Source: Candidatus Poribacteria bacterium (lineage in GTDB: Bacteria > Poribacteria > WGA-4E > JAJDTR01). Taken from it: a stretch of 64,000 nucleotides of DNA. Below are positions 5,847-60,690 of this stretch, piece after piece. Position 1 is the stretch's first letter, and each line of letters starts with the position of its first letter. Both the position numbers and the translations under genes were made by a program. The DNA lies in NCBI GenBank assembly GCA_965220415.1, contig OZ244829.1:2283337-2347336 (forward strand), in the 5' to 3' direction. The notes under the pieces were generated by a model. The model saw nothing but the letters and a program-made list of their open reading frames with translations, did not search any database and was not told the origin of the DNA.

Positions 5847-5917
5847 ATTAACCGATCGGATGGATTAAATGATCGAATTGCGAATGCGATAGAGATTCGG
5901 GTGCGATAGGAAATCCC
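5847..5917 (+). mobile_element. Two nested, degenerate 36-nt hairpin elements
   Basis: attaa-cc-ga-tc-ggatg[attaa-at-ga-tc-gaatt-gc-ga-at-gcgatagagattc]...gcgataggaaatccc. Confidence 0.6.
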
Positions 5918-5944
5918 GATTGTTGTCCTCTCGTTCGATCGTTT

Positions 5945-7567
5945 CTAAAGCGCTCCCTCTGTTTCACCAGCCTTCGCTTTGTAGGACTCCCGGATCCAGC
6001 TCTCAAGCACTTCATCGGGATTTTCTACCACCTCTTTGGTGAAAGTGAACTCTTTCCGTCCCGTATTCTGTTTAATCAGATTGAGACCGTGCTGGCAACT
6101 CTGAAGTATCTCTTCGCAGATCTCTCCGGGGAGGCACTCGCGATCCTCCGCTTTTTTGCAGACAAGTTCAGTCGCCTCATCGTCAAAAGAGACCTGCATC
6201 TTGTGTTCGTCCTTGAACCGCGCTTCGTATTGGCGAACATGCTCGCGCATCACAATTTGGCGGTTGTAAGCGGCATCCCCCATAATTCGTTTTAATTCTC
6301 CAGCCGGATCATCAACCACCTTTTCAGCGACGACAAACTCCCTGACCGGAGTAGAGGGGAGTTCAAATTTATAGTCACGGAGCACCTTCTCGCACACGGT
6401 CATCAGTGCACGTGCTCCAGTTTTCTGAACATGCGCCTTTTCAGCGATTTGACGCAGCCCTCTGTCTGAGAACATCACATTGATTCCGTAGGCGCGGAAC
6501 GCCTGTTCATACTGACGGATGATTGAGCCTTCGGAGTGATTCAAAATATAGTGCAGGTCGTCGACCGACAGATTCTGACAGATGACGTGCACCGGTAAGC
6601 GTCCGATAAATTCGGGCTCAAAACCGTACTCGATAAAATCCTGCGGTGTCACAAACTGATGGTAATCTTCTTCCTCTGCATCGCTTTGCACCAATGCGTT
6701 AAATCCCAGTTTTCGTTGGTTCAAGCGTTTTTTGATAATATCAGCCAGGCCCGTGAACGCGCCGCTGATGATGAAAAGAATGTGGCGAGTGTTGACAATC
6801 TGTTTATCGACTTTGCCTTTCTGCTGAAACTCCATCATCGCTTGCATCTGAGAGGCGACATCGTGCCCGCTCCGAAGATCCACCTCGGTTTCTTCCATCA
6901 ACTTTAGCAGCCCGATTTGAACGCCTCGCCCGCTGACATCACGTCCGATAATATTCGGAGGAGTAGCAATCTTGTCCGCTTCGTCGAGGTAGATGATACC
7001 GTATTGTGCGAGCTCCACATCGTCATCCGCTTGAGTGACCAGATCGCGTATCATGTCGTCGACGTTTGCTCCCACATACCCGGTTTCGCTGAAACGGGTG
7101 GCATCCGCCTTGACAAACGGCACGCCGATCAGTTTTGCAATATGACGGATGAGATACGTCTTACCTACCCCGGTCGGACCAAGCATAACGATATTCTGTT
7201 TCGAATAATCGGTATCCGCAAGTTTCGGATCCTCATGGCATTCACGCACATGGTTATAGTGATCGCATACCGCGATTGCCAGTGCTTTCTTCGCCTCGTC
7301 CTGTTGAATCACATAGCGGTCGAGATACTGTTTAATCTCTCTGGGCTTCAGATCGAATTTCGGATCGAAGGTGCGCTTGGGTTCGGGCGGCTCTTCGTCT
7401 GTTGTCTCGGCCGTGGTTGGTTGGGCACCCGCCATGACGAGGCGCACGTTTCCGCCGTATTTTTGTTTGACTAAATCCTCAAACTCCTTCTGAAGTTCCT
7501 CCGGAGTCGGAATTTTCTTGTTGTTCGTTTGATTTGACATGTTTTTACTTACCTTCCGCATTATCAA
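5945..7567 (-). CDS. ClpX-like AAA+ ATPase without the N-terminal zinc finger, with a C-terminal extension
   Basis: GPTGVGKT Walker A, IIYLDEADK Walker B, RDVSGRGVQ, LGF loop, PEFIGRLP, TGARAL. Confidence 0.85.
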   Translation of the reverse strand: MIMRKVSKNMSNQTNNKKIPTPEELQKEFEDLVKQKYGGNVRLVMAGAQPTTAETTDEEPPEPKRTFDPKFDLKPREIKQYLDRYVIQQDEAKKALAIAVCDHYNHVRECHEDPKLADTDYSKQNIVMLGPTGVGKTYLIRHIAKLIGVPFVKADATRFSETGYVGANVDDMIRDLVTQADDDVELAQYGIIYLDEADKIATPPNIIGRDVSGRGVQIGLLKLMEETEVDLRSGHDVASQMQAMMEFQQKGKVDKQIVNTRHILFIISGAFTGLADIIKKRLNQRKLGFNALVQSDAEEEDYHQFVTPQDFIEYGFEPEFIGRLPVHVICQNLSVDDLHYILNHSEGSIIRQYEQAFRAYGINVMFSDRGLRQIAEKAHVQKTGARALMTVCEKVLRDYKFELPSTPVREFVVAEKVVDDPAGELKRIMGDAAYNRQIVMREHVRQYEARFKDEHKMQVSFDDEATELVCKKAEDRECLPGEICEEILQSCQHGLNLIKQNTGRKEFTFTKEVVENPDEVLESWIRESYKAKAGETEGAL

Positions 7568-7619: not shown

Positions 7620-8042
7620 GCACGCCATCATCCCTGGCGGAATAATTCATTCAGCAACCAACACTTATTTTTCGCTCTATGACAGGTTTTGAAAAAGCGT
7701 TCCTTCGTAGAATGGTTTCACTCCAGATGATCAAGCGAACGAATAGTGAGTGCGATAGTAGATCCTGTGAGATGTTAATAGAACATGATTCCTCCCCGCG
7801 TCTGCACTCCAGAGGATCAACGGAGTGAATAACGACGGCGATAGTAGATCCCGTGCAATGTCAATAGAATCGTGATGCGTCCAACCTCCGCGCTCCAGCG
7901 GAGCGCAATGTGGTGTGTTACTTGGTAGCGCGCCATTATCCCTGTCGGAATAATTCTTTCCGCAAGTAACACCTACTAGTCAGAGTCCCTTTCCTCGATC
8001 CAGAGGATTAAGCGAGTGAATAGCAAGCGCGATAGAGATCTT
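7620..8042 (+). repeat. Composite intergenic repeat (CTCCAGAGGAG-type hairpins) with three 36-nt elements at 7730, 7816 and 8007
   Basis: 7929-8007 matches 30485-30563; REP-like gcactcc-aga-ggagtgc is interrupted by the element; an empty copy lies at 7890-7906. Confidence 0.8.
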
Positions 8043-16931: not shown

Positions 16932-16967
16932 ATCAAGGAAGCGGGTAGCGACCGCGATAGAGATCTT
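16932..16967 (+). mobile_element. 36-nt hairpin element
   Basis: atcaa-gg-aa-gc-gggta-gc-ga-cc-gcgatagagatctt. Confidence 0.75.
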
Positions 16968-17020
16968 CAATGAATTGCACTACTACGAACCCTCGGTTTT
17001 GTAACTTATGGATTACGAAT

Positions 17021-17219
17021 TATACTCCGCACTGTCAGAAATTGCGTCTTCTGTAGGATCAAACGAGCGTATAGCGAGTGCGATAGAGATCCCGCGATCT
17101 CCAGGTCGCGACCCTTGTACGAAGGAACTCCGATTCCCGACCTGATGGTGCTACATAAGTCCTATTAGAAACAATTATCACTGGAAAAGAAAGCGCAATA
17201 ATACCCAACGCAGAGTATA
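17021..17219 (+). mobile_element. TA-flanked MITE family A (IS630-like), copy 1, carrying a 36-nt element at 17058-17093
   Basis: TA-TACTCCG...CAGAGTA-TA; near-identical to copies at 24130, 35818, 43311 and 53340. Confidence 0.88.
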
Positions 17220-17232
17220 AGAAATAAAATTT

Positions 17233-17619
17233 CTATCTTTCCAGCAGTTCAACTTCATAACCATCCGGATCGGTGATAAACGCCATCTTCATTCCACCCG
17301 AAGTAAATTGTTCACGCCAGCCATCGGGCCAAATTTCAAGCCCCGCCTTTTCCAATTTGTCGCAGAACGCCACGAGGTCCGGAACACCGATGGCAAAGTG
17401 CATTAAATCCTCCGGAACATTGAGGTCGTAATCGGAGGAATAGGTAAACTCAAGCGTGTGCAGGTTCCCAGGTAATTCCATGTGCACAATCTGGTTGCCA
17501 GCAGGCGACTTGTCGCTCCGGCTTTTCACCACGAAGCCGAGGTGGTCGGCGTACCATTGGATTGACTGATCCAAATCACTCACACGGACACGAGTGTGTA
17601 GAAATTCTGCCATTTTCAT
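17233..17619 (-). CDS. VOC/glyoxalase family protein
   Basis: FLHTRVRVSDL, HFAIGV, FITDPDGYEVEL. Confidence 0.9.
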   Translation of the reverse strand: MKMAEFLHTRVRVSDLDQSIQWYADHLGFVVKSRSDKSPAGNQIVHMELPGNLHTLEFTYSSDYDLNVPEDLMHFAIGVPDLVAFCDKLEKAGLEIWPDGWREQFTSGGMKMAFITDPDGYEVELLER

Positions 17620-44380: not shown

Positions 44381-44510
44381 CAATGTCAATAGACATGTGA
44401 TACCTCCAATTTTCGCGCTCCGGCGGAGCGCAATGCAACTTGTTTATTAGCCAAATGCACCGCTCAATCCGCGAAGAAACGACGAATATCAACACACCGT
44501 ACGGTTCCAC

Positions 44511-45191: not shown

Positions 45192-45250
45192 CGCTAGGAT
45201 CGGATAATTATACGTCGGCTCAAATTGACAATCCGGGGAAGTTTCAAAAT

Positions 45251-45643
45251 ATGGCAGAATTCAAAAAGCTGAAGGGCTGTTATCGGAGGGTGTTACTTTT
45301 TCTGTTTGTACTCGCTGTAATTCTTCTAGCGGCGTGCTTTATCTTCTATCAGCAGGTTGGCGGGATTGACGGTGCACGATACTGGATGGCGGGACGGGCG
45401 CTAGGCAACGTGGAAGAGCATCTGTTGAAAAATCGACCCGACGGTATTTCAAAATCGGATGTCGAAAGGCAGTTTGAAACTGTGCGGAACGCAACCTCCG
45501 AATGGCGTGTGGATTTAGTGCAACTCCACGGTGTGCTCAAGGACTACCAAAACCGATTTCAGAACACAAAGCCGTCAACTCCCGAGACGGTTCAATTCCT
45601 CACGAATCTTGAGGCTACCGTTCTGCCTGAAACTAGCAACTAA
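45251..45643 (+). CDS. Hypothetical membrane-anchored protein
   Basis: N-terminal TM helix, 130 aa. Confidence 0.65.
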   Translation: MAEFKKLKGCYRRVLLFLFVLAVILLAACFIFYQQVGGIDGARYWMAGRALGNVEEHLLKNRPDGISKSDVERQFETVRNATSEWRVDLVQLHGVLKDYQNRFQNTKPSTPETVQFLTNLEATVLPETSN

Positions 45644-45672
45644 TGCCGGCATACCAAACCCCGTGGGCGGGG

Positions 45673-45708
45673 ATCAAGCGAGTGGATAACGAGTACGATA
45701 GAGATCCT
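45673..45708 (+). mobile_element. 36-nt hairpin element in a gcgggg..gccccgc REP
   Basis: gcgggg[atcaagcgagtggataacgagtacgatagagatcct]atcctgccccgc. Confidence 0.85.
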
Positions 45709-45824
45709 ATCCTGCCCCGCATCAGAAAGTGTTTATTGGCGCTAGTAATTCACTGCAAATATAGGAAAATGGTGTAGATTTCGTTTTCTTAATCTTGCGA
45801 GAAACGAGGTTGGGTTAAAGTTAC

Positions 45825-46541
45825 TTGATTGACAAAATTCTACACGCCGCATCACGTTGTTTTGGCAAGGGCCCGTTAACACGCCAAGATTTTCAGTACA
45901 TAACCGACCTCTATTCCTCCCTACCCCAAACCACACGCATGCAGGTATGGGCGCGCCTTATCTGTTTACAACCTGTACTGAAAGCGATTGAGCAGCATGT
46001 CCCTCACACCGCCGAACGGCTGGTTGATCTGGGAAGTGGATACGGACTGGTAAGCGCCCTCACCGCACTGCGGCGAAAGACCACGGTTCTGGGGATTGAA
46101 GCCTCGCCCTCAAGACTTGCGATTGCGCGGCAAGCCACAACCGGACATATCCCGAATGTATCCTTTCAGCAGGGGGATATCGCCCAAATCTCACTTCCCC
46201 CGAGCGACGCCATCCTGTTAATCGACGTGCTATGCCTTTTTGCCGATGACACCCAAGCGCATGTTCTAGAGAATTGCGCGGATTCACTGTGTTTGGGCGG
46301 CGTTCTGCTTATCAAGGACAATACGACGACCTCGCGGTGGAAATACCGATACACAAATCTGGAGGAAAGAATCAAGCTTTGCTTGGGAACCTATGGAGTC
46401 AGAGCGCAGATGCGACCAAACTATCGTACTCCCGAGGCATGGCGGCATCTTATTGCGAACGCAAACCTGAAAATCGAAGAGGAATGTTTCATCAGATCTA
46501 TTGCCCCCTATCCCGGCGTAATCTATCTTTGCCGAAAATAG
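45825..46541 (+). CDS. Class I SAM-dependent methyltransferase
   Basis: LVDLGSGYG, FQQGD, L..GGVLLIKD. Confidence 0.85.
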   Translation: MIDKILHAASRCFGKGPLTRQDFQYITDLYSSLPQTTRMQVWARLICLQPVLKAIEQHVPHTAERLVDLGSGYGLVSALTALRRKTTVLGIEASPSRLAIARQATTGHIPNVSFQQGDIAQISLPPSDAILLIDVLCLFADDTQAHVLENCADSLCLGGVLLIKDNTTTSRWKYRYTNLEERIKLCLGTYGVRAQMRPNYRTPEAWRHLIANANLKIEEECFIRSIAPYPGVIYLCRK

Positions 46542-46544
46542 CAT

Positions 46545-47636
46545 CTACCCAGTTGCGGCGCCCTTGAGAAATCTCCCTATGTACTCCCGAATTCGCCGAG
46601 CACATGAATCATCACTCAGGTCGGAAGTTGCAAGAATCTCCAACGCACGATCCATTCTAGCCCGCACATCTCCCCAAGCTTTTAGCAGTGCACTGTTTTT
46701 CTCCCTTGTTGGCTGAGCAACCGCCTCCAACAACCGATGAACAACTGAAAGGTAGAAGAGGATATTGTGGTAATCAAGTTGTGCGATGATGTTTCCTACA
46801 GTGGTGCCTGGCCGGTACGCAACGGCTCGATTTGCGTAGGCGTCTATGACTTCTCGATTCAGCAAGTTGACGAAGTTTCCACCCTCGCGGTTTGCGCCTA
46901 GGCTATTGAAGAACTGAACGATGCGCCGTTCACTCCAGTCCCAACCGACGCTCCCAAAATCGACGAAGGTGCATTCGCCAGCATTAATCACGATGTTCCG
47001 CGCATTATAATCGAGCACCCCTAATGTCGCCGAATTTTTTTGGAGAGTTTTAGAGAAATTCGACCAGAACTCGTCAAAATCCGACGATAACGATTCACCA
47101 CACGACCGGGCGAGGTAACTCATCGTTTTTCGCCCCTGGGTGAGCATGTCTTTCATCGACTGGCGCAGACAGGTCGGATAGTCCTGGTGATATACATAAG
47201 GCGCGAATTCAGCGCGGAGATCGGCGAAACTTTTCTCTATATGGCAGAACTTAGCGAGAGCGCCGGTTACCGTTTCCTTCAGTGACTCAAGCGGCGTTGT
47301 TTGAGCCACATCGTCAAGCGTCGATTCGCCGCACCACTCCAACAACAGGCAGAAATTGGGAGCGGAATGCCACACGACATTCGGAACACTGCAACCGGCG
47401 TCGTGCAGCGTCGAGAGAACCGATGACTCAACTTCAAACGGCGAAAAAACCGAATCCCCAATGGGGCGTGTGATGAAGTGCTGTTTGAGCAGGTAGCTCT
47501 GACCATCAACAATCACCCGCCAGAGGTTGTTTCTTTCGACACCGCCGTGCTTTATCGGAAGAACCCGCAGACATTCCGGTGACGTACCAAAACGATTCGC
47601 AATCTTTGGAATAATTTGGAACAGTTCAGGAAACAT
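46545..47636 (-). CDS. APH/kinase-like phosphotransferase
   Basis: YLLK, LLLEWCG, DYNARN (catalytic loop), FVDFG. Confidence 0.7.
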   Translation of the reverse strand: MFPELFQIIPKIANRFGTSPECLRVLPIKHGGVERNNLWRVIVDGQSYLLKQHFITRPIGDSVFSPFEVESSVLSTLHDAGCSVPNVVWHSAPNFCLLLEWCGESTLDDVAQTTPLESLKETVTGALAKFCHIEKSFADLRAEFAPYVYHQDYPTCLRQSMKDMLTQGRKTMSYLARSCGESLSSDFDEFWSNFSKTLQKNSATLGVLDYNARNIVINAGECTFVDFGSVGWDWSERRIVQFFNSLGANREGGNFVNLLNREVIDAYANRAVAYRPGTTVGNIIAQLDYHNILFYLSVVHRLLEAVAQPTREKNSALLKAWGDVRARMDRALEILATSDLSDDSCARRIREYIGRFLKGAATG

Positions 47637-47960
47637 TGAGATTGGTACCAGGTCGGTCAATTGCGTGTGGAGCAGTATACCGCAAATCAGGCGATCATTC
47701 CAACCATATCGTGTTATAGATACCCAAACTATCCTTATTGTAGGGGACGGCCCCTGTGCCGTCCCTTTAGTTCTACCGTGCCGTCTCTTTAGCTCTAAGG
47801 TGAACACCGCCCACTATCCTTCCATTCTTCCGCCCTTCTATCCTTCCACATCCACCGCAATCCAATGTGATTGCCTACATTCGCATGTATTGTCTATCGC
47901 ATCTGGACGTTGGATGTGATATAATTAAACGCTATTTTTCGTTGAAATTGGGGGCATCGC

Positions 47961-50900
47961 GTGTCAAAAATCAAACCAATCGTCTGGCTAATCTTCCTTT
48001 TATCCGGGGCAAGCGGCCTCGTTTATGAAGTCGTCTGGACACGCCAACTCACGCTAGTTTTCGGCAGCACCGTGTTTGCGGCAAGCACGGTCTTGACGGC
48101 GTTTATGGCGGGTTTGGCGCTCGGAAGCTATTATTTCGGGCGTATGGTAGACCGCGAAAAGCGCCCATTGCGCCTTTATGCCGTCCTCGAAGCGGGAATC
48201 GGTGCCTTCGCATTGATTTGGCCGCTACTCTTAAGCGTGTTGAACGCCATCTACATACTCGCGTATCGCGGCCTGAATGCCGAATTTTACTCCCTGTCGC
48301 TGATTCGATTTGCTCTCTCATTTCTCGTGTTGCTCCTCCCATCAACCTTGATGGGAGGAACACTCCCTATCCTGAGCCGATTCTTCGTCAACCGATTGGA
48401 GAAACTCGGTCTCAATGTCGGTGCACTTTACGCGTTAAACACCTTCGGCGCCGTCGTCGGCTGTGTCGCAGCGGGGTTTTTCCTCATCCAGTATTTGGGA
48501 GTTCAAGCGTCGATTTATCTTGCCGCAGCGATAAATTTCGGGGTCGCCATCATCGCTTTTCTGTTGGACAAAATGAGCGCCCAAATCACGGAAACTGGTG
48601 AAGCTGATACCCAAGAAACACAACCCGCGTCCGATCTGACACCAGTCGATACGGATCCTGACCCGGCTCTTCGCCTCGTGCTGTGGGCTTTCGCCGTATC
48701 CGGGTTCTGTGCGCTCTCTTACGAAGTTTTCTGGACTCGCATTCTCGTCTTTTTCCTCGGTAGCACGTCCTATGCCTTCTCGACGATGCTGGCGGCGTTT
48801 CTATTTGGAATCGCGCTGGGGAGTTTCATCTTCGCGTGGATTGCCGATCGCTTGAAATCCCTTGTCAATCTGCTCGGTCTGGTTCAGATCGGAATCGGAC
48901 TGGCGGCAGTGGCGCTGATTCCCGCCTTCGGCGGACTTTATGACATCGGCAGCACGCTCCAATCCATGTTCGGAGGGGCGCGGTTTTGGTCATTCGCCGC
49001 CTGCGTTATCGTAATGAGCGTCCCAACGCTACTCATGGGGATGAGTTTTCCGATCGTCGCCCGTATCTACACGGTGAATGCCGCGAAACTCGGTCGTAGC
49101 ATCGGCAACGTTTATGCACTCAACACCGTCGGATCTATTCTTGGTGCATTCTGCGCCGGGTTCATTCTGATTCCTCTAATCGGCATACGTCCGGGCATCG
49201 TCCTGATGGCGATGCTGAACGTTATCATCGGATGTGTCCTAATCTTTCGGAACGAGAAGCGCTCGCAGTTCTTCAACGGTGCGGCGGTCGGAGGGACAAT
49301 TCTGACCATCGGGATTGCCGCAATTGTCCTCTTCGTAGCGAATAAACCGCTTTTTCTCAAGAGCGCCATCTTTCGTACACAGCGACCGGGCGATACCATC
49401 ATCGATTACCAAGAGGAGATTGACGCAACCGTCACGACGCTCAAAGACGATGAAGATGTCTTTCGGCTATACGTGGATACGAATCAGGCAGCCGACGCAT
49501 CCCGTTGGGACTCGCCATCCCATCGCGTAATCGCTCACCTCCCGCTGCTCCTGCATCCGAACCCGAAACGAGCGCTTGTGGTCGGTTTTGGCATGGGCGT
49601 GACATCCTACTCAATTACGCAACACGGCGTCCGCGTCGACGCGGTCGAGATCTCGAAAGGGGTAATCGACTCCGCGCGATCACATTTCAGCCACGTTAAC
49701 CACGACGTTCTGGATAATCCGCTGTTCAGCCATTACATCAATGACGGCCGAAACCATATTCTGATGACCGATCAGAAATACGACATGATCTCAACCGGAA
49801 TCATTCATCCATTGGTCAGCGCCGGAAGTTCAAACATCTACACGGCGGATTTCTATCGACTCTGCCAGCGAATTCTGACCGAGGACGGAATCATGTGCCA
49901 ATGGGTGCCGTTGCACCGCGTGCCCGAGGAACACTACAAGACAATCGTGAGGACATTCGTCAACGTGTTTCCGCACACAACGCTCTGGTACAAGTATACC
50001 CCGGACTTCGTTATTTTAATCGGCACGCCCCGCCCGCTCAGGATTAACTACAACGACTTTCTGGCACGTGCCCAAATTCCAAGCATTCGCAAAGGGTTGG
50101 CGCACGACAATTTGGATGGCATGTCACTGCTCGACTCATTCATGATGAGCGAGAAACGGGTACTTGAATACGTTGGAGACGGTCCCATCCACACAGATGA
50201 CCACCCGCATTTGGAATTTTTCCGAGCGCAAGACTTGACGAATACAACCGCCGCCAACGTCACCGGAATGACTAAACACCGCGAACGGGTGACACCCTAT
50301 TTGGACAACTACGGACGCACGATTGGCGAGAAAAAAGAGATTAGAGGGCAAGTTCGCCAATACTTCGATGCCACTCAGAAGTTGATTCTCGGGCAGGTTG
50401 AGTACGCCAAGGGGCAATACGACCGAGCGGTCGGCTTGCTAAATCAGGCGATTGCCATCAATCCGGAGGACGACACGATTCGATATAACCTCCGAGTTGT
50501 TGCAGATCTCTTCAACAAGGAATACCAAGGGGAACTCAAGCAACTTGAGCAACTTGTGAAACAAGCGCAGCAGAAGGATCCCAAAGACGTGGAAGGTTAT
50601 CTCCAACTGGCGGTCATCTACGAAGGGCAGGGAAAGCTGGCGGAGGCAGCCGAAGCCTTGGAGCAGGCTATCGATCTCGCGCCAAATCGCGTCGATTTCT
50701 TCCTGCTGCTTGGACCGATGTACGAGCGACAAGAGCGCTTTGACGAGGCACTACGGACGTACACACGGCTTGAAAAAGTGGATCCCAAACTGCCGGTACC
50801 GATTCTACAGGCGGTGGCGTTCATCAACCATCGCAAGAATAGGCACGACGAAGCGTTGAAATACGCCCAAAGGGCGTTGGATGAGGACGCAACTTCATGG

Positions 50901-51152
50901 CGCGCCCATTATCTCTTGGGAAGCATCTATGCCGCAAAAGAACGGATTGAAAGGGCGATTCAATCCTATCGGCGGTCAATCGAACTCGCACCCAACGAAC
51001 CGATACCGCACACCGACTTGGCTGAGATATACTTCTCGCAAAAACGGTATGATGACGCGCTGAAAGCCAATGCATCGGCAATCCGCGTCGCACCGGATGT
51101 CCCGGAGCTTGAGGAGCAGCGCCGACGCATCCAAGATGCAATGTCAAAGTAG
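47961..51152 (+). CDS. Membrane-bound spermidine-synthase-like protein (multi-TM domain + SAM-binding domain + TPR repeats)
   Basis: SGASGLVYEVVWTR repeated TM halves, LVVGFGMGVT, VEIS, DGR, C-terminal TPRs. Confidence 0.88.
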   Translation: MSKIKPIVWLIFLLSGASGLVYEVVWTRQLTLVFGSTVFAASTVLTAFMAGLALGSYYFGRMVDREKRPLRLYAVLEAGIGAFALIWPLLLSVLNAIYILAYRGLNAEFYSLSLIRFALSFLVLLLPSTLMGGTLPILSRFFVNRLEKLGLNVGALYALNTFGAVVGCVAAGFFLIQYLGVQASIYLAAAINFGVAIIAFLLDKMSAQITETGEADTQETQPASDLTPVDTDPDPALRLVLWAFAVSGFCALSYEVFWTRILVFFLGSTSYAFSTMLAAFLFGIALGSFIFAWIADRLKSLVNLLGLVQIGIGLAAVALIPAFGGLYDIGSTLQSMFGGARFWSFAACVIVMSVPTLLMGMSFPIVARIYTVNAAKLGRSIGNVYALNTVGSILGAFCAGFILIPLIGIRPGIVLMAMLNVIIGCVLIFRNEKRSQFFNGAAVGGTILTIGIAAIVLFVANKPLFLKSAIFRTQRPGDTIIDYQEEIDATVTTLKDDEDVFRLYVDTNQAADASRWDSPSHRVIAHLPLLLHPNPKRALVVGFGMGVTSYSITQHGVRVDAVEISKGVIDSARSHFSHVNHDVLDNPLFSHYINDGRNHILMTDQKYDMISTGIIHPLVSAGSSNIYTADFYRLCQRILTEDGIMCQWVPLHRVPEEHYKTIVRTFVNVFPHTTLWYKYTPDFVILIGTPRPLRINYNDFLARAQIPSIRKGLAHDNLDGMSLLDSFMMSEKRVLEYVGDGPIHTDDHPHLEFFRAQDLTNTTAANVTGMTKHRERVTPYLDNYGRTIGEKKEIRGQVRQYFDATQKLILGQVEYAKGQYDRAVGLLNQAIAINPEDDTIRYNLRVVADLFNKEYQGELKQLEQLVKQAQQKDPKDVEGYLQLAVIYEGQGKLAEAAEALEQAIDLAPNRVDFFLLLGPMYERQERFDEALRTYTRLEKVDPKLPVPILQAVAFINHRKNRHDEALKYAQRALDEDATSWRAHYLLGSIYAAKERIERAIQSYRRSIELAPNEPIPHTDLAEIYFSQKRYDDALKANASAIRVAPDVPELEEQRRRIQDAMSK

Positions 51153-51282
51153 TAGGCATACTCCGTATGCCGTAACCTAAAGAACTAACGCACCCGATGT
51201 CCCGGAACTTGAGGAGCAGCGCCGACGTATCCAAGATGCAATGCCAAAGTAGTAGGCATACTCCGGTAACCTGAAGAACTAA
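51089..51282 (+). repeat. Tandem ~100-bp duplication of the gene 3' end plus REP
   Basis: 51089-51188 resembles 51189-51282; the second copy has a 6-bp deletion in the ggcatac-tcc-gtatgcc hairpin. Confidence 0.9.
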
Positions 51283-51295
51283 GACAGGCGGTTAA

Positions 51296-51558
51296 GAGCC
51301 TGTTTGAAAAGTACAATTTGTAGGGTGCGATCAACCGACTGATTAAGGAGGGCGATAGAGATCCACTGCGCACCAGCCTCTAAAAGCCCCAGAGGGATCA
51401 AGCGAGTGGATAACGAGCGCGATAGTAGATCCCTCAACCGAGCGGATAGCGAAGGCGATAGAAATCCAACAGGTAGGTAGTAGACGACAATAAAAGCATG
51501 AAAAAGCTTCCTACAAATAACCAAAAATGGCTTTGCTACCGATTTTTCAAGCAGGCCC
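51296..51558. mobile_element. MITE family C (TIR GAGCCTGTTTGAAAA, TAA TSD) carrying three 36-nt elements (51330, 51397, 51434)
   Basis: taa-gagcctgtttgaaaa...ttttcaagcaggccc-taa. Confidence 0.75.
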
Positions 51559-51609
51559 TAAAGAAACGTCAATGAAAATCAAGAAGTGAGAAGGAGCAAT
51601 CAATAACAG

Positions 51610-52869
51610 ATGCAGATTCAATCACCAAAGGGGACCAGAGATATCCTTCCCTCAGACATCCGAACCTGGCAGTGGGTAGAGAAAGTCGCGCGATCAGTTT
51701 TCGAGACCTACGGTTATCGGGAAATTCGCACACCGATTTTCGAGAGCACGGAGCTGTTTGTGCGCGGCGTCGGCGACACCACCGACATCGTCGAAAAGGA
51801 GATGTATACTTTCGACGACAAAGCCAACCGCAGCATTACGCTTCGTCCGGAAGGCACGGCGCCGGTGGTGCGCGCAATTCTCCAGAATCGACTGCTAGAG
51901 GGAACAAATGTGCTGAAACTGTACTACAATGGTCGAATGTACCGCTATGAAAGGCCGCAGGCTGGACGTTTCCGCGAACACTGGCAGGTGGGAGTGGAAG
52001 TCTTCGGGGCTGCGGGCCCCGCAGTTGACGCGGAAGTCATTACGTTAGCCCACCACTTCTACACGACACTCGGTTTCAAAGATTTGATGTTACACCTCAA
52101 CACTATCGGCGATCGCGCGTGCCGACCAAACTATGTGGCGGAGCTCAAGGCGTTCACGAAGAGCCGCCTCAATCAGTTTTGTAAGGAGTGCCAAGGACGC
52201 TACGGGCGCAATCCGCTGCGCCTTTTCGATTGCAAGAAAGGTTGCCGTGAAATTCTTGCCGAAGGTCCTCGACTGGTGGACTACCTGAATGAAGCATGCC
52301 GTGAACATTTCGACGCTGTCAAGCGTTATTTGGAATTGTCAAACATCGACTATACCGAAAATCCCGATCTGGTGAGGGGGATGGACTACTACTCTCGCAC
52401 CACGTTTGAATTTACCGCGGGCGGCCTCGGCGCACAGAACGCCATTGGCGGTGGCGGGCGTTACGATTATCTCGTCGAAGAACTCGGCAACAAGCCGACA
52501 CCGGGAATCGGGTTCGGGCTTGGGGTTGACCGCATCATACTTGCCCTGGAGGCGCAAAAGGTTGCGATTCCTACGCAGCCCCACGTCGAAGTCTTTATCG
52601 CCGTGCTCGGGGACGAGACGATGCCGGTCGCCTTTCAGTTGGCGCAACGCCTTCGGACGGGCGACATCCGAACCGAGCTTGAGTACACCGGGCGCAGCCT
52701 GAAAGCACAGATGAAAACGGCAAACAAGTTGGATGCGCGGTATGTCGTCATTCTCGGAGAAAATGAGATCAGCACCGAAACGGCGACTGTTCGAGATATG
52801 GAAACCGGCGACCAACAATCCATCCCGTTTGATCGATTAGCAGATGAACTCAGGAAACCACAAATCTAA
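51610..52869 (+). CDS. hisS: Histidine-tRNA ligase
   Basis: LRPEGTA, RYERPQAGRFRE, LVRGMDYY, GGGRYD. Confidence 0.97.
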   Translation: MQIQSPKGTRDILPSDIRTWQWVEKVARSVFETYGYREIRTPIFESTELFVRGVGDTTDIVEKEMYTFDDKANRSITLRPEGTAPVVRAILQNRLLEGTNVLKLYYNGRMYRYERPQAGRFREHWQVGVEVFGAAGPAVDAEVITLAHHFYTTLGFKDLMLHLNTIGDRACRPNYVAELKAFTKSRLNQFCKECQGRYGRNPLRLFDCKKGCREILAEGPRLVDYLNEACREHFDAVKRYLELSNIDYTENPDLVRGMDYYSRTTFEFTAGGLGAQNAIGGGGRYDYLVEELGNKPTPGIGFGLGVDRIILALEAQKVAIPTQPHVEVFIAVLGDETMPVAFQLAQRLRTGDIRTELEYTGRSLKAQMKTANKLDARYVVILGENEISTETATVRDMETGDQQSIPFDRLADELRKPQI

Positions 52870-52952
52870 GAGGCTTTCGTAGGGTGGGATCTGCGATCAC
52901 AAATCGCAGATTTCTTCTCTTACTGCCCACCAGCCTTTGACAACGCCAACGT

Positions 52953-53375
52953 GTGATGCCTCTCATGAACAACACATTGACCTACTCATACGACAAAGCA
53001 GCCGATGTGCTGTACATCTCATTTTCCCCGGGTGAGAAAGCAACAACGGCTGTCGAGCTGAATGATAATATCCTGTTGCGTTTCAATCGTGCTGAAAAAC
53101 GTGCAGTCGGTTTAACGCTCATGGATTTCTCGGTGTTGGTACAGTTCACTGATCTGGGCCCACGGAGTTTCCCATTGGTCGGATTGGGCGAACTTGAACC
53201 GGACTGGCGCGAAACGGTTATTGAAATTATCACCAAACCGCCCATGAGCGAAATCCTCAAAGTATCCGTCTATACACCTTCGTTGGCTGAGGCAGTTCCA
53301 ATCACGCTCATAGAAAAACCTCCGATTCCGATCGCAAGTTATACTCCGAGCTGTCAGAAATTGCGTCTTCTGTAG
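52953..53375 (+). CDS. DUF2283-like protein; last 11 aa supplied by a MITE
   Basis: YSYDKAADVLYISF motif; C-terminal YTPSCQKLRLL is MITE sequence. Confidence 0.75.
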   Translation: MMPLMNNTLTYSYDKAADVLYISFSPGEKATTAVELNDNILLRFNRAEKRAVGLTLMDFSVLVQFTDLGPRSFPLVGLGELEPDWRETVIEIITKPPMSEILKVSVYTPSLAEAVPITLIEKPPIPIASYTPSCQKLRLL

Positions 53376-53503
53376 GAGCGATCTCCAGGTCGCGACCCTT
53401 GTACGAGGGAACTCCGATTCCCGACCTACTGGTGCTACGTTAGTTCTATTAGAAACAATTATCACTGGAAAAGAAAGCGCAATAATACCCAACGCAAGGT
53501 ATA
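53340..53503 (+). mobile_element. MITE family A, copy 5 (empty allele)
   Basis: TA-TACTCCG...CAAGGTA-TA, 164 bp. Confidence 0.9.
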
Positions 53504-53576
53504 AACCAATTGTTCATGATGACCAGAGTTTGCCCAAGGGCCAAATTTTACAACAAGGAGAAACGAAATACACACA

Positions 53577-55574
53577 ATGCCTGAAATGAAAAGGACGCAC
53601 TATTGCGGAGAACTACGGCTCGCCGATGCTGGCACATCTGCCCGATTAACCGGCTGGGTCGCCCGCCGCCGCGACCACGGCGGCGTCATTTTCGTCGATT
53701 TGCGGGATCGGACGGGAATCACGCAGGTCGTTTTCGATCCGGAAATCGACCCCGAGCCGCACCAACTCGCACACCAGATCCGGAACGAATTTGTGTTGTG
53801 CGTCGCCGGAAGCGTGCGTGAGCGCGTGGAAGGCGATTTGTTGGCGCTGACCGATCAGAAGCACCAAGCCGACCTTGACACCGGTCACCTTTCCGAGGAT
53901 CTCAAATCCACGTTCGAGGACGATAGACATAAACTCTCGGCGGACGTAACGGTTACCGTTAGAGAAGCCGGAAGCCGGTGGCTCATCACCGACAATGAGA
54001 GCAGCCGAACCTACGCGGCGAAAATCGTTGATGATGCGCTCCATGTCTATCAGGGCACCATCAATCCGGAACTCGACACGGGCGAAATCGAACTGGCAAC
54101 GAATCATCTTGAGATTTTAAACCGCGCCGAAACCCCGCCGTTTCCCGTGGAGGATGAAATCGACACCGACGAGGAGATTCGCATGACGTACCGCTACGTC
54201 GATCTCCGCCGTCCCAAGATGCAAGAGATGTTATCGGTTCGACACAAAGCCGTTCTCGCCGCCCGGAAGTACATGGATGAACAGGGGTTTCTTGAAATCG
54301 AAACCCCAATCCTGATGAACAGCACGCCCGAAGGTGCGCGGGACGTGCTCAGCCCAAGCCGACTCAATGCCGGCAACTTTTACGCGCTGCCGCAATCGCC
54401 GCAACAGTTCAAGCAGATTCTAATGATGAGCGGTGTCGATCGCTACTTCCAGATTCCCCGCTGTTTCCGCGATGAGGACACCCGCGCCGATCGACAGCTC
54501 GAGTTCACGCAACTCGATCTTGAGATGTCTTTCGCAACGGTAGATGAGGTCCTCGAAGTCAGCGAAGGACTGATGAAACGGATGTTCGAGGAAGCCGCTG
54601 GCACTCCCGTACCCACACCGTTTCCGCGCATCTCCTACCACGACTCCATGGCGCGGTTCGGCAACGACAAACCGGACACCCGTTTCGGAATGGAGCTGTC
54701 CGACCTCTCCGACCTCGTCGCCGACTGCGATTTCAAGGTGTTTACCGGTGCCTTGGAACAAAAGGGACAGGTGAAAGGAATCGCCGTTCCGGGTGGAGCC
54801 GCGTTTTCCCGAAAAGAGATTGAGGACCTGACCGAATTTGTCGCCATCTACAAGGCGAGAGGACTGGCGTGGATAAAAGTGACCGAGAAGGGATTCGAGT
54901 CTAGCATCGTCAAGTTCTTCAGCGAGGAAACCCTCAAAGCTGTGGCCGAGCGGATGGAAGCAAAACCGGGTGACATCATGATGTTCGTCGCCGACCGGCC
55001 GAAGACTGTCGCCGACGCCCTGTCTAACCTCCGACTTCACCTTGGACGGCAACTCGGTCTCATCGACGAGAGCCGTTTCGATTTCCTGTGGATTGTCGAT
55101 TACCCGCTATTCGACTGGAACGAAGACGAAAACCGTTACGAACCCTTCCACCATCTCTTTACCGCGCCCACCGACGACAGCATTCCGCTCTTGGAGTCCG
55201 ATCCTGGGGACGCCCAATCGCAGCACTACGATCTTGTAATCAATGGCATAGAGATCTGCAGCGGCAGCGTCCGAATCCATCGCTGGGATATTCAACAGAA
55301 GGTGCTGGAAATCCTGAACATCGGACCCGAGGAGGTCGAGAAGCGGTACGGCTACTTCATCAAAGCCTTGCAGCACGGCACGCCGCCGCACGCCGGAATT
55401 GCGCCCGGTCTGGATCGCATCGTCATGCTGATGACCGGCGAGGAAAATATCCGAGAAGTCATCGCCTTCCCCAAAACCCAAAAAGGCTTATGCCTCCTTA
55501 CCAGTGCCCCCTCCACGGTCACCGACGAGCAGTTGGAAGAGTTGTCGATCAAGGTGGATTTGGAACAGGAATAA
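53577..55574 (+). CDS. aspS: Aspartate-tRNA ligase (probably non-discriminating) with a ~74-aa insertion
   Basis: RRRDHGG, TPEGARD, LPQSPQ, CFRDED, GLDR; follows hisS. Confidence 0.96.
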   Translation: MPEMKRTHYCGELRLADAGTSARLTGWVARRRDHGGVIFVDLRDRTGITQVVFDPEIDPEPHQLAHQIRNEFVLCVAGSVRERVEGDLLALTDQKHQADLDTGHLSEDLKSTFEDDRHKLSADVTVTVREAGSRWLITDNESSRTYAAKIVDDALHVYQGTINPELDTGEIELATNHLEILNRAETPPFPVEDEIDTDEEIRMTYRYVDLRRPKMQEMLSVRHKAVLAARKYMDEQGFLEIETPILMNSTPEGARDVLSPSRLNAGNFYALPQSPQQFKQILMMSGVDRYFQIPRCFRDEDTRADRQLEFTQLDLEMSFATVDEVLEVSEGLMKRMFEEAAGTPVPTPFPRISYHDSMARFGNDKPDTRFGMELSDLSDLVADCDFKVFTGALEQKGQVKGIAVPGGAAFSRKEIEDLTEFVAIYKARGLAWIKVTEKGFESSIVKFFSEETLKAVAERMEAKPGDIMMFVADRPKTVADALSNLRLHLGRQLGLIDESRFDFLWIVDYPLFDWNEDENRYEPFHHLFTAPTDDSIPLLESDPGDAQSQHYDLVINGIEICSGSVRIHRWDIQQKVLEILNIGPEEVEKRYGYFIKALQHGTPPHAGIAPGLDRIVMLMTGEENIREVIAFPKTQKGLCLLTSAPSTVTDEQLEELSIKVDLEQE

Positions 55575-57656: not shown

Positions 57657-60596
57657 ATGCCACGAAACAACCGCACCTCCCAATCCCCCGAAATCCAAGA
57701 CTACCGCCACGACTCCGCCACTCGAAGAAACAACCCGCCCGCCGGCATCGCCTCCCACGGCGGGCTCCGCGAAAAGCCCAAGCAAGAATACGCCTACAAC
57801 CCCCACCTGCCGCCCGTCCTCCGATTCGACGACACCGGTGACGCCGACCAGATTCCCGAACTCCTCCAAATAGCGCAACAGCGCCCCCTCACCGATGACG
57901 AGGCGAGAATCCTCGCAGACGCCTTGAAAGACCGCGCCCCGTGGCTCGAATGGGCGGGCAAACAGGAGGCGAAATCCTTCGCCGTTGACCCCGTGGCGCT
58001 GCATATCCACGAACGCCTGAGCGCCAAAGCCATCCTGAGCGTTGCGGCACGCCAAGATGTCCAACGCGACCTCTTCGCCGACCCGCAGCAGGAATACCGC
58101 GAAGCCGTGCAGTTCTACCAGCACGACGTGGATTGGTCGAACCGCCTCATCTTGGGCGATAGCCTCACCGTCATGAGTTCCCTCGCGCACCGGGAAGACC
58201 TTGCGGGCAAGGTACAGATGATATACATCGACCCGCCCTACGGCATCAACTACCATTCGAATTTTCAACCCACCGTCTTTGAGCGTGATGTAAAGGAAAA
58301 AGCGAGCGACCTAACCCGCGAGCGGGAGCAGATCAAAGCCTACCGTGACACTTGGACACTTGGTGTCCACTCCTACCTCGCCTACCTGCGTGACCGTCTG
58401 ATTGTTGCAAGGGACCTGTTGACCGACAGCGGAAGCATCTTTGTGCAAATTAGCGATGAAAATATCCATCGTGTGCGCAGCGTAATGGACGAGGTGTTTG
58501 GGCAGGAAAATTTTGTCGTGGGTATTGTCGTTACAAAAACAGGAAGTCATTCCGGCGAATTGCTTGAACCCATTAACAATCACGTTATATGGTTCGCAAA
58601 AGACAAAACTAAGATTCGAAGTAGAAAATTGTTTGTAGAGCGGGAATGGTCACCTGTAAATACAGGTGGTTTTAACAATTATTACAATGATGTCGGAAAC
58701 GTTGTTGACGCAAAGACTTCACCGCCGAAGGGTAAGAATATGCTTTTTAGAGGCGATCCTATGCTAAGTAGCGGCCACCGTGAAACAACCTCTTGTGATA
58801 TTGAACTTGACGGTAGAATATTTAGTTCTGGATATGCTTATAACTGGAAGGTAAACGTGGATGGCGTAAAAAGGCTTCACAAGAGCGGACGTACTTTAAC
58901 GAGCGGAAGATCAATTTCCTACAGAAGATATTTCGGAGATTTTCCTGTCAAATATATTTCAAATATATGGAACGATCTCGGAGGCGCATCAGGTTTGATT
59001 TATACCGTCCAAACGAACGAACTGATTATCCAGCGATGTCTCCTCATGACTACAGACCCCGGCGATCTCGTTCTCGATCCGACCTGCGGAAGTGGCACCA
59101 CCGCCTATGTTGCTGAGGGTTGGGGCAGACGCTGGATAACCATTGACACCAGCCGCGTGGCAGTTGCCTTGGCACGTCAACGCCTTTTGACGGTTAACTT
59201 CAACTACTACAAAATCAAAGACGAATCGAAAGGCGTGGCGGGCGGATTCATCAACAAGATCGTCCCGCACATCCAACTCAACAGCATCGCCCAAAACACC
59301 GCGCTTGACCCCATCTTCGCAAAGCATGAACCCATTCTTGAGGGTAAGTTGAAGACACTGAACCGCGCATTAGAACGTGTAACGTCTGAGATTCGGACGG
59401 AACTGCGCGCCAAACTCGCGGAGAAACAGCGGCGCGAGGGTAAAAAAGCCGTCACCGATGCCGACCGGAGACGCTGGGAACTCCCTAAGAGCGCGTGGAA
59501 GGAGTGGGACGTGCCGTTTGATACCGACCCCGACTGGCCTCCCGAGTTGAAGAAAGCCTTGACCGACTATCGAACCGCATGGCGGGGGAAGATGGACGAG
59601 GTGAACGAATGCATCGCCGCCGCGTCCGATAGCGAGGAACTCGTCGATCAGCCGGAGGTGGACAAAAAGAAACTGCGGGTAAGCGGTCCCTTCACCGTGG
59701 AGGCGGTGCAACCTGCCGAAGAATCGCTCCACGATGATTCGCCGCTTGGGGGTGAACCCGACGAAGAACTTGAGACTTTCGAGTCTGGGGGCAACGGGAG
59801 CGCGGCTAACGCCGAAGCCTATCTTGACGGCATGATTCGTCTGCTCCGAAACGACGGCGTCCGTTTTCCAAATAACCGTACCATGAAATTCGCGACGCTG
59901 GACGCGCTTGAAGCTGATGTTCTCCACGCTAAGGGAAGCTGGGAAGATGATGCTGCAGAACGCGAGGTTGCCGTAGCCTTCGGTCCCCAACACGGCCCTG
60001 TGACCGCGATGCAAGTCGAGGAGTGTCTGAGAATTGCATCTCGGCGCGGGGTTGATGAACTTGTATTTGCGGGATTCAGCTTCGATGGCGCCGCCCAAGC
60101 CGCTATTGGCGACGACCCGAACCCTAACGTCCGTATCCACATGGCGTACATCAACCCCGACGTGGCGATGGGTGGCTTACTCAAAGAGACGCCCACCAGT
60201 CAACTCTTCACCGTATTCGGCGAACCCCGCACAAAACTTGATACTACGGAAGATGGTGAGTACGTCGTCACAATGGAGGGTGTTGATGTCTACAATCCCG
60301 TCGACAACATGGTGACCTCCGAAGGGGCAGACAAGGTGGCAGCCTGGTTCATTGACTCCGACTACGACGGCAGAACCTTCTGCATCACGCAAGCCTTCTT
60401 CCCCGACAAGAAAGCCTGGAGCAAAATTGCCCGTGCTCTCAAAGGTGTCATTGACGAGGAGCGTTTTGAGAGTTTCAGCGAGACGGCCTCATTGCCGTTT
60501 CCTGCAGGCGAACACCAGCGCGTCGCCGTCAAAGTCATCGACCCCCGCGGAAACGAAGTCATGCGCGTCCACAACCTCGGCGACCAAACCTATTGA
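57657..60596 (+). CDS. Type III R-M adenine methyltransferase (Mod)
   Basis: IYIDPPYG (motif IV), LDPTCGSGTT (motif I), C-terminal VAVKVIDPRGNE. Confidence 0.9.
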   Translation: MPRNNRTSQSPEIQDYRHDSATRRNNPPAGIASHGGLREKPKQEYAYNPHLPPVLRFDDTGDADQIPELLQIAQQRPLTDDEARILADALKDRAPWLEWAGKQEAKSFAVDPVALHIHERLSAKAILSVAARQDVQRDLFADPQQEYREAVQFYQHDVDWSNRLILGDSLTVMSSLAHREDLAGKVQMIYIDPPYGINYHSNFQPTVFERDVKEKASDLTREREQIKAYRDTWTLGVHSYLAYLRDRLIVARDLLTDSGSIFVQISDENIHRVRSVMDEVFGQENFVVGIVVTKTGSHSGELLEPINNHVIWFAKDKTKIRSRKLFVEREWSPVNTGGFNNYYNDVGNVVDAKTSPPKGKNMLFRGDPMLSSGHRETTSCDIELDGRIFSSGYAYNWKVNVDGVKRLHKSGRTLTSGRSISYRRYFGDFPVKYISNIWNDLGGASGLIYTVQTNELIIQRCLLMTTDPGDLVLDPTCGSGTTAYVAEGWGRRWITIDTSRVAVALARQRLLTVNFNYYKIKDESKGVAGGFINKIVPHIQLNSIAQNTALDPIFAKHEPILEGKLKTLNRALERVTSEIRTELRAKLAEKQRREGKKAVTDADRRRWELPKSAWKEWDVPFDTDPDWPPELKKALTDYRTAWRGKMDEVNECIAAASDSEELVDQPEVDKKKLRVSGPFTVEAVQPAEESLHDDSPLGGEPDEELETFESGGNGSAANAEAYLDGMIRLLRNDGVRFPNNRTMKFATLDALEADVLHAKGSWEDDAAEREVAVAFGPQHGPVTAMQVEECLRIASRRGVDELVFAGFSFDGAAQAAIGDDPNPNVRIHMAYINPDVAMGGLLKETPTSQLFTVFGEPRTKLDTTEDGEYVVTMEGVDVYNPVDNMVTSEGADKVAAWFIDSDYDGRTFCITQAFFPDKKAWSKIARALKGVIDEERFESFSETASLPFPAGEHQRVAVKVIDPRGNEVMRVHNLGDQTY

Positions 60597-60690
60597 AGTA
60601 GTAGGCATACTCCGTATGCCGTAACCATCGTGCAAATGACGACACGACAGAGAGAGCAAGCGAGCGGATAGTGAGTGTGACGGAGATCTT
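60597..60690 (+). repeat. REP gtaggcatactccgtatgcc plus a degenerate 36-nt element (~60655-60690)
   Basis: REP identical to the one at 51153; caagcgagcggatagtgagtgtgacggagatctt. Confidence 0.65.

Follow-up and report, generated by a model that had tools for sequence, protein, structure and literature searches.

A small hairpin repeat with covarying arms in Candidatus Poribacteria, probably a non-autonomous insertion element mobilised in trans

A stretch of 64,000 nucleotides from a Candidatus Poribacteria metagenome-assembled genome (MAG) of 6.15 Mb and 50% G+C (contig OZ244829.1; G000:C1:2283337-2347336, hereafter the window) carries many copies of a hairpin unit of 29–36 nt. It thereby bears on how repeats far below the size of a miniature inverted-repeat transposable element (MITE) spread. 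An earlier sequence-only reading of the window had counted about 25 copies; a copy or a recognisable remnant can be read at each position that it cited, and the count is judged fair. We conclude that the unit is probably a non-autonomous, single-strand hairpin insertion element of Candidatus Poribacteria that resembles repetitive extragenic palindromes (REPs) and is mobilised in trans. Mobility in evolutionary time is well supported, and a mechanism based on single-stranded DNA (ssDNA) and a Y1 enzyme is our best guess, held with moderate confidence.

The core of the element was defined as the 29-nt pattern ATCAA-NN-GA-NN-GRATA-NN-GA-NN-GCGATAG with at most three mismatches. It has 19 matches in the window, 18 of them on the + strand, compared with a mean of 0.00 in 100 shuffles. 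Similarly, the core GANNGRATANNGA has 19 window matches against 1.03 expected and the tail GCGATAGNAGATCCC has 11 against 0.63, and partial and nested units occur besides the 19 cores. The genome holds 1585 copies of the core: 824 match exactly, 472 have one mismatch, 199 have two, and 90 have three. Of all 1585 copies, 1565 lie outside crude gene calls. When exact constant positions and all four pairs are required, 1122 copies are found, compared with one in the reversed genome; among these exact paired cores, the ATCAA head is present in 1100 and the GCGATAG tail in 888. Counted by themselves, tails occur 1108 times, against once in the reversed-genome control. A covariance model scored 150 of about 4445 first-look candidates, and the copy numbers given here are pattern counts. 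In the window's genus the core is followed by a 7–8-nt tail, (T)AGATCYY, and the position profile of the genome reads G|ATCAA nn GA nn G(A/G)ATA nn GA nn GCGATAG AGATCCC. The consensus proposed earlier does occur in the window, but the T in its tail is optional and the genome consensus is GCGATAG-AGATCCC. As for Rfam, no family matches the element: at gathering thresholds the window yields two tRNAs, and positions 43200–45800 give no match at E<=5.

On one strand, the core forms a hairpin in which two 2-bp Watson-Crick steps of free sequence flank a nearly invariant tandem G.A/A.G step. The loop is possibly closed by a G.A pair, and an invariant lower stem ATC/GAT is possible, which never varies and hence gives no covariation signal. 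In an alignment of 20 window rows, 97.5% of the cells are paired, compared with 72.5% in shuffles, all four stem pairs vary on both sides, and the covariation score is reached by none of 500 shuffles; when the register is slid, pairing drops to 17–61%. The same four pairs vary among the 1585 genomic copies (6-22: GC 438, CG 430, GT 316, AT 296; 7-21: CG 928, TA 414, GC 123; 10-18: GC 748, AT 388, CG 352; 11-17: TA 590, CG 562, TG 369), and mutual information over all column pairs ranks 10-18, 7-21, and 6-22 highest. Pairs 7-21 and 10-18, which adjoin the GA step, are Watson-Crick in 92–94% of the copies with 2% wobble each, and the outermost (6-22) and innermost (11-17) pairs show G.T/T.G wobble in 20–23%. 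At these tolerant pairs, G.T on the top strand (316+369 copies) contrasts with A.C/C.A, the equivalent of wobbles on the other strand, which is about 20-fold rarer (16+21). Conservation elsewhere is high, at 95% for G8, 99% for A9, 97% for both G19 and A20, and 96–99% for each of positions 1–5 (ATCAA). The sequence-only reading had described eight covarying positions, a nearly fixed GA/GA step, GRATA loop and ends, and imperfect pairs that are mostly G.T on the element strand, and all of this is borne out in the window and across the genome. Covariation together with wobble confined to one strand identifies a folded single strand as the object under constraint, as that reading had also proposed.

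The arms are highly diverse. There are 392 stem haplotypes among the 1585 copies, the commonest with 53 copies, and the four pairs assort nearly independently (mutual information 0.10–0.29 bits). Constant positions deviate from the consensus in about 1–4% of cases, similar to the mismatch rate at paired sites, which fits a requirement for pairing at the time of copying followed by neutral decay.

That the copies are insertions, as proposed earlier, is seen from empty-site paralogs, from nesting, and from differences in presence between orthologous loci. An empty-site paralog exists in the same genome for 722 of the 1585 copies, in 111 distinct 20-nt contexts that form 37 target clusters. The 722 comparisons of filled and empty sites show no target duplication, in line with the earlier statement that the element makes none. 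The commonest junction class, with 133 copies, has lost two target bases; clean insertions account for 44+26 copies, and losses of 1, 3, and 4 nt also occur, giving an overall range of 0–4 nt. Target forms that already lack the lost dinucleotide number 0 among the empty sites of REP-A, the CCCCAG hairpin, and the GCGCTCC palindrome. A clean ATC or GATC target-duplication model (which suits, for example, the copy at 51330) and a 33-nt clean-insert model each fit single copies, but not the whole set. In about 97% of the 37 target clusters a G occupies position -1; purines prevail before it, and the two bases after the insertion point are often CG (G|CG).

When the copies are grouped by their flanks, the element ends are sharp and each host repeat family is also found empty. 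The hosts include REP-A (GTAGGGTGCG|CA|CTGCGCACC), REP-B (GTAGG|A|GCGATCTCCAGGTCGCGA, and GTAGGAGCG^ATCTCC), REP-C (GTAGGCGGGG|CA..|TTGCCCCGC), and other palindromes (CCCCAGMGGGG|CG| and GCRCTCCAGMGG|AG(C/T)G|). The element also invades copies of itself, where the insertion points are the junction of head and tail (G|CG|ATAG), the loop, and the arm on the 3' side; nested heads and tails stack as H1H2H3-T3T2T1. The sequence-only reading had recognised the repeat but overlooked that most copies reside inside other repeats, i.e., GTAG-REPs and palindromes. At REP-A, 11 different hairpins occur among 39 filled sites. Pairs of neighbours within 300 nt (n=504) comprise 440 direct, 40 convergent, and 24 divergent cases, and 26 of the 440 adjacent direct pairs share a haplotype, compared with 2% of random pairs. 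Tandem units abut at a 35–36-nt period, with no spacers and with differing stems. The many hairpin variants at one type of site, and the rarity of identical neighbours, indicate that most arrays consist of independent insertions. True tandem duplications occur as well, and composite units of REP and element are also amplified (e.g., 16 copies with one hairpin). In the composite repeat family that hosts the copy at 17058, 92 members are empty and about 63 filled. This composite repeat of about 250 nt (window 17000–17235 and 43300–43520) combines REP-B with a GAGGGAACTCCGATTCCCGAC hairpin, reminiscent of bacterial interspersed mosaic elements; its 12-nt anchor GTCTTCTGTAGG occurs 193 times in the genome with at most one mismatch, and about one third of the sites are invaded.

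Within the window, good copies start at 7730, 7816, 8007, 16932, 17058, 26393 (-), 30563, 30645, 39920, 39986, 43348, 44204, 44239, 44320, 45673, 51330, 51397, and 51433. Head-only or nested units lie at 44275, 44297, 26411 (-), and 39908, and degenerate copies at 5847/5864, 30421, 35855, and 60655; the unit at 35855, cited earlier as a copy, is recognisable but is a variant that lacks the GA steps. The individual features are as follows (window positions).

5847 to 5917, + strand: degenerate cluster of two decayed heads or hairpins, then two tails, GCGATAGAGATTCG and GCGATAGGAAATCCC.
7730 to 7766, + strand: full copy with 0 mismatches, hairpin GC-GA-AC/GT-GA-GT, and an extra T in the tail.
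7816 to 7852, + strand: full copy within the palindrome GCRCTCCAGAGGAGYGC, inserted after ..CTCCAGAGG; the empty form of the palindrome is also seen.
8007 to 8042, + strand: copy with 2 mismatches and an ATTAA head, inserted after ..GATCCAGAGG.
16932 to 16967, + strand: copy with outer pair GG/CC.
17058 to 17093, + strand: copy at GTAGG^A of a REP-B unit in the composite repeat of about 250 nt.
26341 to 26411, - strand: nested pair, the outer copy in a GGTAGGTGCG...AACCGCA REP and split behind its loop by an entire inner copy (26357–26393).
30563 to 30598, + strand: full copy with tail AGATCTT.
30645 to 30681, + strand: full copy after ..GCGCTCCAGAGG.
35855 to 35935, + strand: variant copy without the GA steps, located at GTAGG^ of REP-B; two further tails come after it and represent what is left of nested units.
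39908 to 39968, + strand: nested remnant with a partial head, a full copy (39920), and a second tail.
39986 to 40022, + strand: copy in REP-B at GTAGGAGCG^ATCTCC, the junction ambiguous by 2 nt (TC).
43348 to 43383, + strand: copy at GTAGG^A of the composite REP-B repeat.
44204 to 44380, + strand: array of two tandem full copies and then three nested copies (44275–44380) in the order head-head-head/tail-tail-tail; the array replaces the AGCG of the palindrome ..CGCTCCAGAGG|AGCG|CAATGTC.
45673 to 45708, + strand: copy in the loop of the REP-C hairpin GGGCGGGG...CTGCCCCGC.
51330 to 51365, + strand: copy in the REP-A loop (GTAGGGTGCG|..|CTGCGCACCAGCC).
51397 to 51468, + strand: two abutting copies at CCCCAGAGGG hairpin sites.
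60655 to 60690, + strand: decayed copy with an AGCAA head and GTGACGG instead of GCGATAG.

The two tRNA genes of the window, its only Rfam matches, are located at 5159–5231 (+) and 39604–39677 (-), and copies of the element are found within about 300–700 nt of each.

The orientation of the element is tied to that of its hosts. GTRG is present at most 14 nt upstream of 487 of the 1585 copies, compared with CYAC in 39, so that the element strand is the GTAG strand of the REP. The element is strand-biased in blocks of 100–500 kb, the bias tracks that of the empty REP families (Spearman 0.62–0.79 in five of six families), and neighbours up to 30 kb apart share a strand in 64% of cases. The orientation on the GTAG strand and the tracking of empty REPs point to handling as ssDNA alongside the REPs. 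All REP-like families in the genome share a polarity that flips in blocks of 100–500 kb (e.g., 0:24, 21:0, and 31:0 per 100 kb). Repeat polarity tracks GC skew poorly, and GC skew at third codon positions (GC3 skew) changes sign sharply near 3.0 Mb. The polarity blocks may be old inversions or the result of local spread.

Among the matches to the element listed from a scan of 185,579 species genomes (97 stretches), all are from Candidatus Poribacteria MAGs, and there was no match in 2.9 million viral contigs. A cyanobacterial origin, hinted at by GCGAT-like motifs that recall HIP1, was rejected, as GCGATCGC occurs just 117 times in the genome and the listed matches are all from Poribacteria. 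The phylum was surveyed in 176 genomes with the core pattern at no more than one mismatch, and a second pattern gave the same picture. High copy numbers are found in 14 of the 176 genomes, in two genera of different families: all ten species of the window's genus (597–1296 copies) and all four species of a genus in another family, g7 (206–215 copies). One further species has 19 copies, the remaining genomes have 0–5, and the reversed control gave 0. In the second genus the same core is joined to a different tail, GCGATAG-TCTT/TTTT, and the units form tail-to-tail inverted doublets. In a 4.9-Mb Poribacteria MAG (L046, a stretch of OZ240245.1), inverted doublets at about 1680–1760, 5475–5555, and 6240–6365 lie exactly between the genes of what the translations suggest is a cytochrome oxidase/ABC operon, and extend the called ends of open reading frames.

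Comparison of six window loci with nine congeners shows that most clusters of REPs and elements are species-specific and that presence of the element differs between species at orthologous loci. At 16932 the whole repeat cluster is absent from the orthologous site in the relatives G026 and G027. At 45673, G026 has a different, compensated hairpin (G-C vs A-T), and five other relatives have neither REP nor element. The ortholog of 51330 in G023 has an identical 29-nt core between flanking genes that are about 88% identical, and at 51397–51468 the sequence between the two copies, present and empty in G023, is missing from the window. The ortholog of 5847–5917 in G026 (L154, G026:C1:1644478-1649158) consists of four tandem 35-nt units with near-identical stems, and other relatives have an uninterrupted antisense REP in its place. 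The L154 array, which corresponds to window 5740–5945, grew by duplication rather than insertion.

Based on these observations, we propose that the element would move as ssDNA, coupled to replication in the manner of REP and IS200-type elements, using a trans-acting enzyme for which an HUH/Y1 activity is the most plausible candidate. Solely copies whose arms still pair would be substrates, and this requirement would explain the covariation. The preferred insertion point, as the copies show, lies immediately after a G within a stretch of purines, in many cases at G|CG, and the favoured targets are the loops or feet of GTAG-REP hairpins, small palindromes, and resident copies, the last giving rise to nested arrays.

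REPs are tied to REP-associated tyrosine transposases (RAYTs). The window itself has no Y1 gene, as noted earlier, and the nearest PF01797 match lies about 53 kb outside. Of the nine PF01797 matches in the genome, two are IS200-like genes with inverted CCCCAG-type repeats on either side and four are paralogous RAYTs; a classical RAYT is bordered by REP-A, another gene by GTAGGGGACGG repeats, and the last lies between cas1 and cas2. The classical RAYT and the paralogs are REP-associated tyrosine transposases by NCBIfam (NF047646, 180 and 125 bits), and the classical RAYT matches PDB entry 4ER8 with E 1.6e-34. Three of the four paralogous RAYTs have their own GTAG-REP on both sides, and the fourth (3325905) has a GTAG-REP upstream and about 680 nt downstream. 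The REPs that flank RAYTs often carry the element as an insert, both here and in g7, where it is found in the loops of REPs flanking a RAYT.

Inspection of the REP/Y1 loci (L143, G000:C1:4706000-4708000; L101, L100, L102, L103, L105, and L099) associates REP-A with the classical RAYT, three GTAG families with the four paralogous RAYTs, GTAGGGGACGG repeats with another RAYT, and inverted CCCCAGNGGGG repeats with the two IS200-like genes that they surround. The classical RAYT gene lies at 655–1230 of L143, one RAYT-X gene at 1423–1902 of L101 (- strand), and an IS200-like gene at 1489–1959 of L099. This uncultured sponge symbiont has a dense, multi-REPtron genome: there are at least five or six distinct REP-like families, which apparently go with separate Y1/RAYT genes. 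The cas-linked Y1 gene (L104, G000:C1:3622726-3626061, positions 1477–2040, + strand) scores 70 bits to NF047646, for which the cut-off is 80. Its neighbours in the flanking DNA look like cas1 and cas2, its homologs have 72–91% identity, and it has no flanking REPs. In a g7 genome (L136, G034:C1:1595422-1598664, about 1591–1866), a homolog of the RAYT type called RAYT-X is cut to 92 amino acids and has an element-like tail (..GTGTGCGATAGAAATC..) within its reading frame, an arrangement that suggests a RAYT gene can be broken by the element.

Several results weigh against mobilisation as ssDNA by a Y1 enzyme. The sequence-only reading had named HUH/RAYT genes as candidates that might track the element, but no Y1 lineage does so across the 176 phylum genomes. 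RAYT-X seemed to fit at first; its homologs are present in 90 of the 176 genomes, many of them free of the element, and it was not found at E<=1e-20 in G019, G021, G026, and G033, which have hundreds of copies. The IS200-like gene is present in 101 of the 176 genomes and absent from G032 and G034, the cas1/cas2-linked Y1 gene is present in 13 of the 176, and the classical RAYT type was seen in two of the four g7 genomes. Among the PF01797 genes whose flanks were read, no RAYT is flanked by the element as its own REP. Genes flanked on both sides by the element number 112, compared with about 86 expected. A REPtron-like gene was sought among them: they include ten recurrent families, and of these the four largest (WD40, PD40, sulfatase, and PhyH) contain nothing that resembles a transposase. 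The GTRG upstream of 487 copies belongs to the host REP, and the element's own hairpin lacks a GT[AG]G foot. Its junctions, G^N with a loss of about 2 nt, also differ from the C^T cleavage rule given for the E. coli RAYT in passages of PMC3479197. The polarity of the element correlates weakly with GC3 skew (rho -0.27) and gene strand (rho +0.35), and as the correlations with GC skew and GC3 skew are weak or mixed, coupling to replication is conjectural. Public contigs from 24 runs over 35000–54999 break at repeats and give no readable signal of polymorphism, excision, or transcription; a 36-nt skip at 39986–40023 stems from paralogous empty copies elsewhere. Nearest-neighbour folding predicts -0.8 to -2.2 kcal/mol with z-scores above 0, i.e., the hairpin is no stabler than shuffles, and the case for the structure therefore consists of covariation and the assumed G.A pairs. 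Any stability of the hairpin must come from the G.A pairs, which are outside the energy model, or from a protein, and the earlier statement that copies must refold to propagate goes further than the predicted energies allow.

A more specific form of the ssDNA proposal, which we put forward tentatively and consider rather unlikely as a whole, is that the element is a hyperparasite of the REP/RAYT system. Lacking a transposase of its own, it would be a guide-less mini-substrate, spliced into the unpaired loops or feet of folded REPs, and into those of its own copies, by whichever HUH/Y1 enzyme works on these REPs, and the tandem-G.A hairpin would be its sole heritable need. If this were true, few structure-defined mobile DNAs would be smaller than the element, which would also be without known precedent as a repeat that makes its niche in REPs of several RAYT classes.

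The alternative that survives best, although improbable, is an RNA-mediated route in which the hairpin would be transcribed, reverse-transcribed, and inserted, with the structure selected as RNA. Spread of this kind has reportedly been proposed for cyanobacterial small dispersed repeats (SDRs). G.U wobbles and tandem sheared G.A pairs are common features of RNA and would be accounted for, and the small target deletions in place of duplications, together with seemingly 5'-truncated, tail-only fragments, recall target-primed reverse transcription. Between co-directional genes there is also a modest sense bias (677 vs 420 copies), but the antisense copies still make up 38%, and polarity goes with that of the REPs and not with transcription. 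Nesting, not truncation, accounts for the head-only units, and no Rfam family matches the element. Reverse transcriptase genes had likewise been named earlier as possible mobilisers, but none in the genome exceeds the Pfam cut-off, the sole match of this kind scoring 25 bits against a required 29.6.

Highly improbable is that selection keeps the element in place as a structured site of use to the host, for instance to bind a protein or to end or stabilise a transcript, and that it multiplies chiefly through gene conversion or recombination between REP clusters and not by transposition. The 37 unrelated target clusters, which include insertions inside other copies, are difficult to reconcile with this, as are the weak orientation relative to genes, the low predicted stability, the species specificity of most examined loci, and the lack of high copy number in 161 of the 176 phylum genomes. 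On the other hand, a useful site could account for the strictly intergenic location, the core shared between G000 and G023 at 51330, the compensated pair that distinguishes the G000 and G026 orthologs at 45673, the inverted doublets between cox operon genes in g7, and the amplification of composite units of REP and element. Templated correction of quasi-palindromes could likewise maintain arm complementarity, and template switching at replication might then keep the arms matched mechanically, with no selection for folding and with mobility still possible, which would suit the 392 haplotypes and nearly free assortment of four pairs (hard to reach by stepwise double mutations) and the possible in-situ compensated change at 45673, but is very unlikely because it would erase the G.T wobbles retained on one strand only in 20–23% of two pairs, would not hold the GA/GA mismatches invariant, and would have to act on arms just 6 nt long.

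Returning to the preferred reading of a REP-like element mobilised in trans as ssDNA, similarities and differences with known systems can be noted. Like REPs (20–40 nt) and REPINs, the element is short and extragenic, has the form of an imperfect palindrome, and reaches hundreds to thousands of copies. REPs act as folded single strands and the fold of the element is strand-constrained, and in g7 there are inverted doublets of the element that may correspond to REPINs. Unlike REPs, it lacks a GT[AG]G or CGTC foot, has the conserved flanks ATCAA and GCGATAG, and its stem consists of 2+2 bp around an invariant tandem G.A step. Its neighbours in the window genome are direct in 440 cases and inverted in 64, and it inserts into REPs and has no cognate, co-distributed RAYT. 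RAYTs are active on REPs folded as single strands and are capable of strand transfer, according to passages in PMC3479197. Parts of PMC3733652 describe REP subfamilies that differ in the complementary residues of their stems and contain G.T pairs, as well as REPs inserted within small palindromes, and atypical REPs without GTAG are mentioned in a section of PMC6006769.

The SDRs resemble the element in their described behaviour. SDR1–8 of Nostoc and relatives are said, by Elhai et al. in 2008, to be very small and nested in themselves and in other repeats, with a common secondary structure that shows compensatory changes, and SDR5 reportedly inserts precisely between bases 3 and 4 of GCGATCGC. 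The element is similarly very small, self-nested, and found in other repeats, with compensatory changes. The cyanobacterial SDRs are not known to have had a mover identified since 2008. The element differs from them in that it occurs in Poribacteria, measures 29–36 nt, and targets REP hairpins and G|CG sites with about 2 nt lost, whereas the SDRs are cyanobacterial and SDR5 is 21 nt long (size given in part of PMC13756078). Passages in two citing papers (PMC4390886, PMC13756078) characterise SDRs as very small nested mobile repeats.

IS200/IS605 elements are described in part of PMC6006769 as having strand-specific hairpin recognition, insertion 3' of a short sequence, no duplication, and a chromosomal orientation bias. 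The element shares strand specificity, a hairpin, the lack of target duplication, and an orientation bias with palindrome-associated transposable elements (PATEs) of this type, but PATEs have two distinct end hairpins and leave the target intact, whereas the element has one hairpin and usually a 2-nt loss, and its target is a G after purines instead of a fixed tetra- or pentanucleotide. Like MITEs it is non-autonomous, intergenic, and multi-copy, but it has neither terminal inverted repeats nor target duplications, which, with a size of 70–300 bp, are features of MITEs in the relevant part of PMC3733652. In contrast to clustered regularly interspaced short palindromic repeats (CRISPR), the element is dispersed, and its tandem units have no spacers and differ in their stems.

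Novelty was implied by the sequence-only reading, but since REP subfamilies with covarying stems and G.T pairs are already in print (passages of PMC3733652), as are small nested SDRs, novelty is lower than was implied. Among the papers listed by a literature search that left supplements aside, none links Poribacteria to REPs, RAYTs, or palindromic repeats. New are the empty-site paralogs, the residence in REPs, in palindromes, and in the element itself, the junction rule, the REP-linked polarity, and the distribution over two genera. The material is unusually clean, with thousands of copies, nested insertions, and hundreds of pairs of filled and empty sites that define the junction rule. It presents a minimal hairpin in which the paired positions are free in sequence and the G.A step is fixed, and shows that REP hairpins can themselves be colonised. 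The dense repeat ecosystem and the chromosome-wide repeat polarity in uncultured sponge symbionts also bear on genome plasticity and on the quality of MAG assembly.

Two further loci in the genome were inspected. The second contig (C2, 3504 bases) was considered as a rolling-circle replicon and rejected; it carries no element and resembles a fragment of a type I restriction-modification system, with HsdS-like and HsdR-like translated frames that contain frame breaks, and its sequence is not found in C1. The sub-threshold RVT_1 match is a 657-amino-acid protein with a YVDD motif (L132, G000:C1:5447844-5451362, positions 523–2496, - strand), encoded next to a gene that, judged from its translation, resembles a restriction enzyme, and is probably a defence-type reverse transcriptase.

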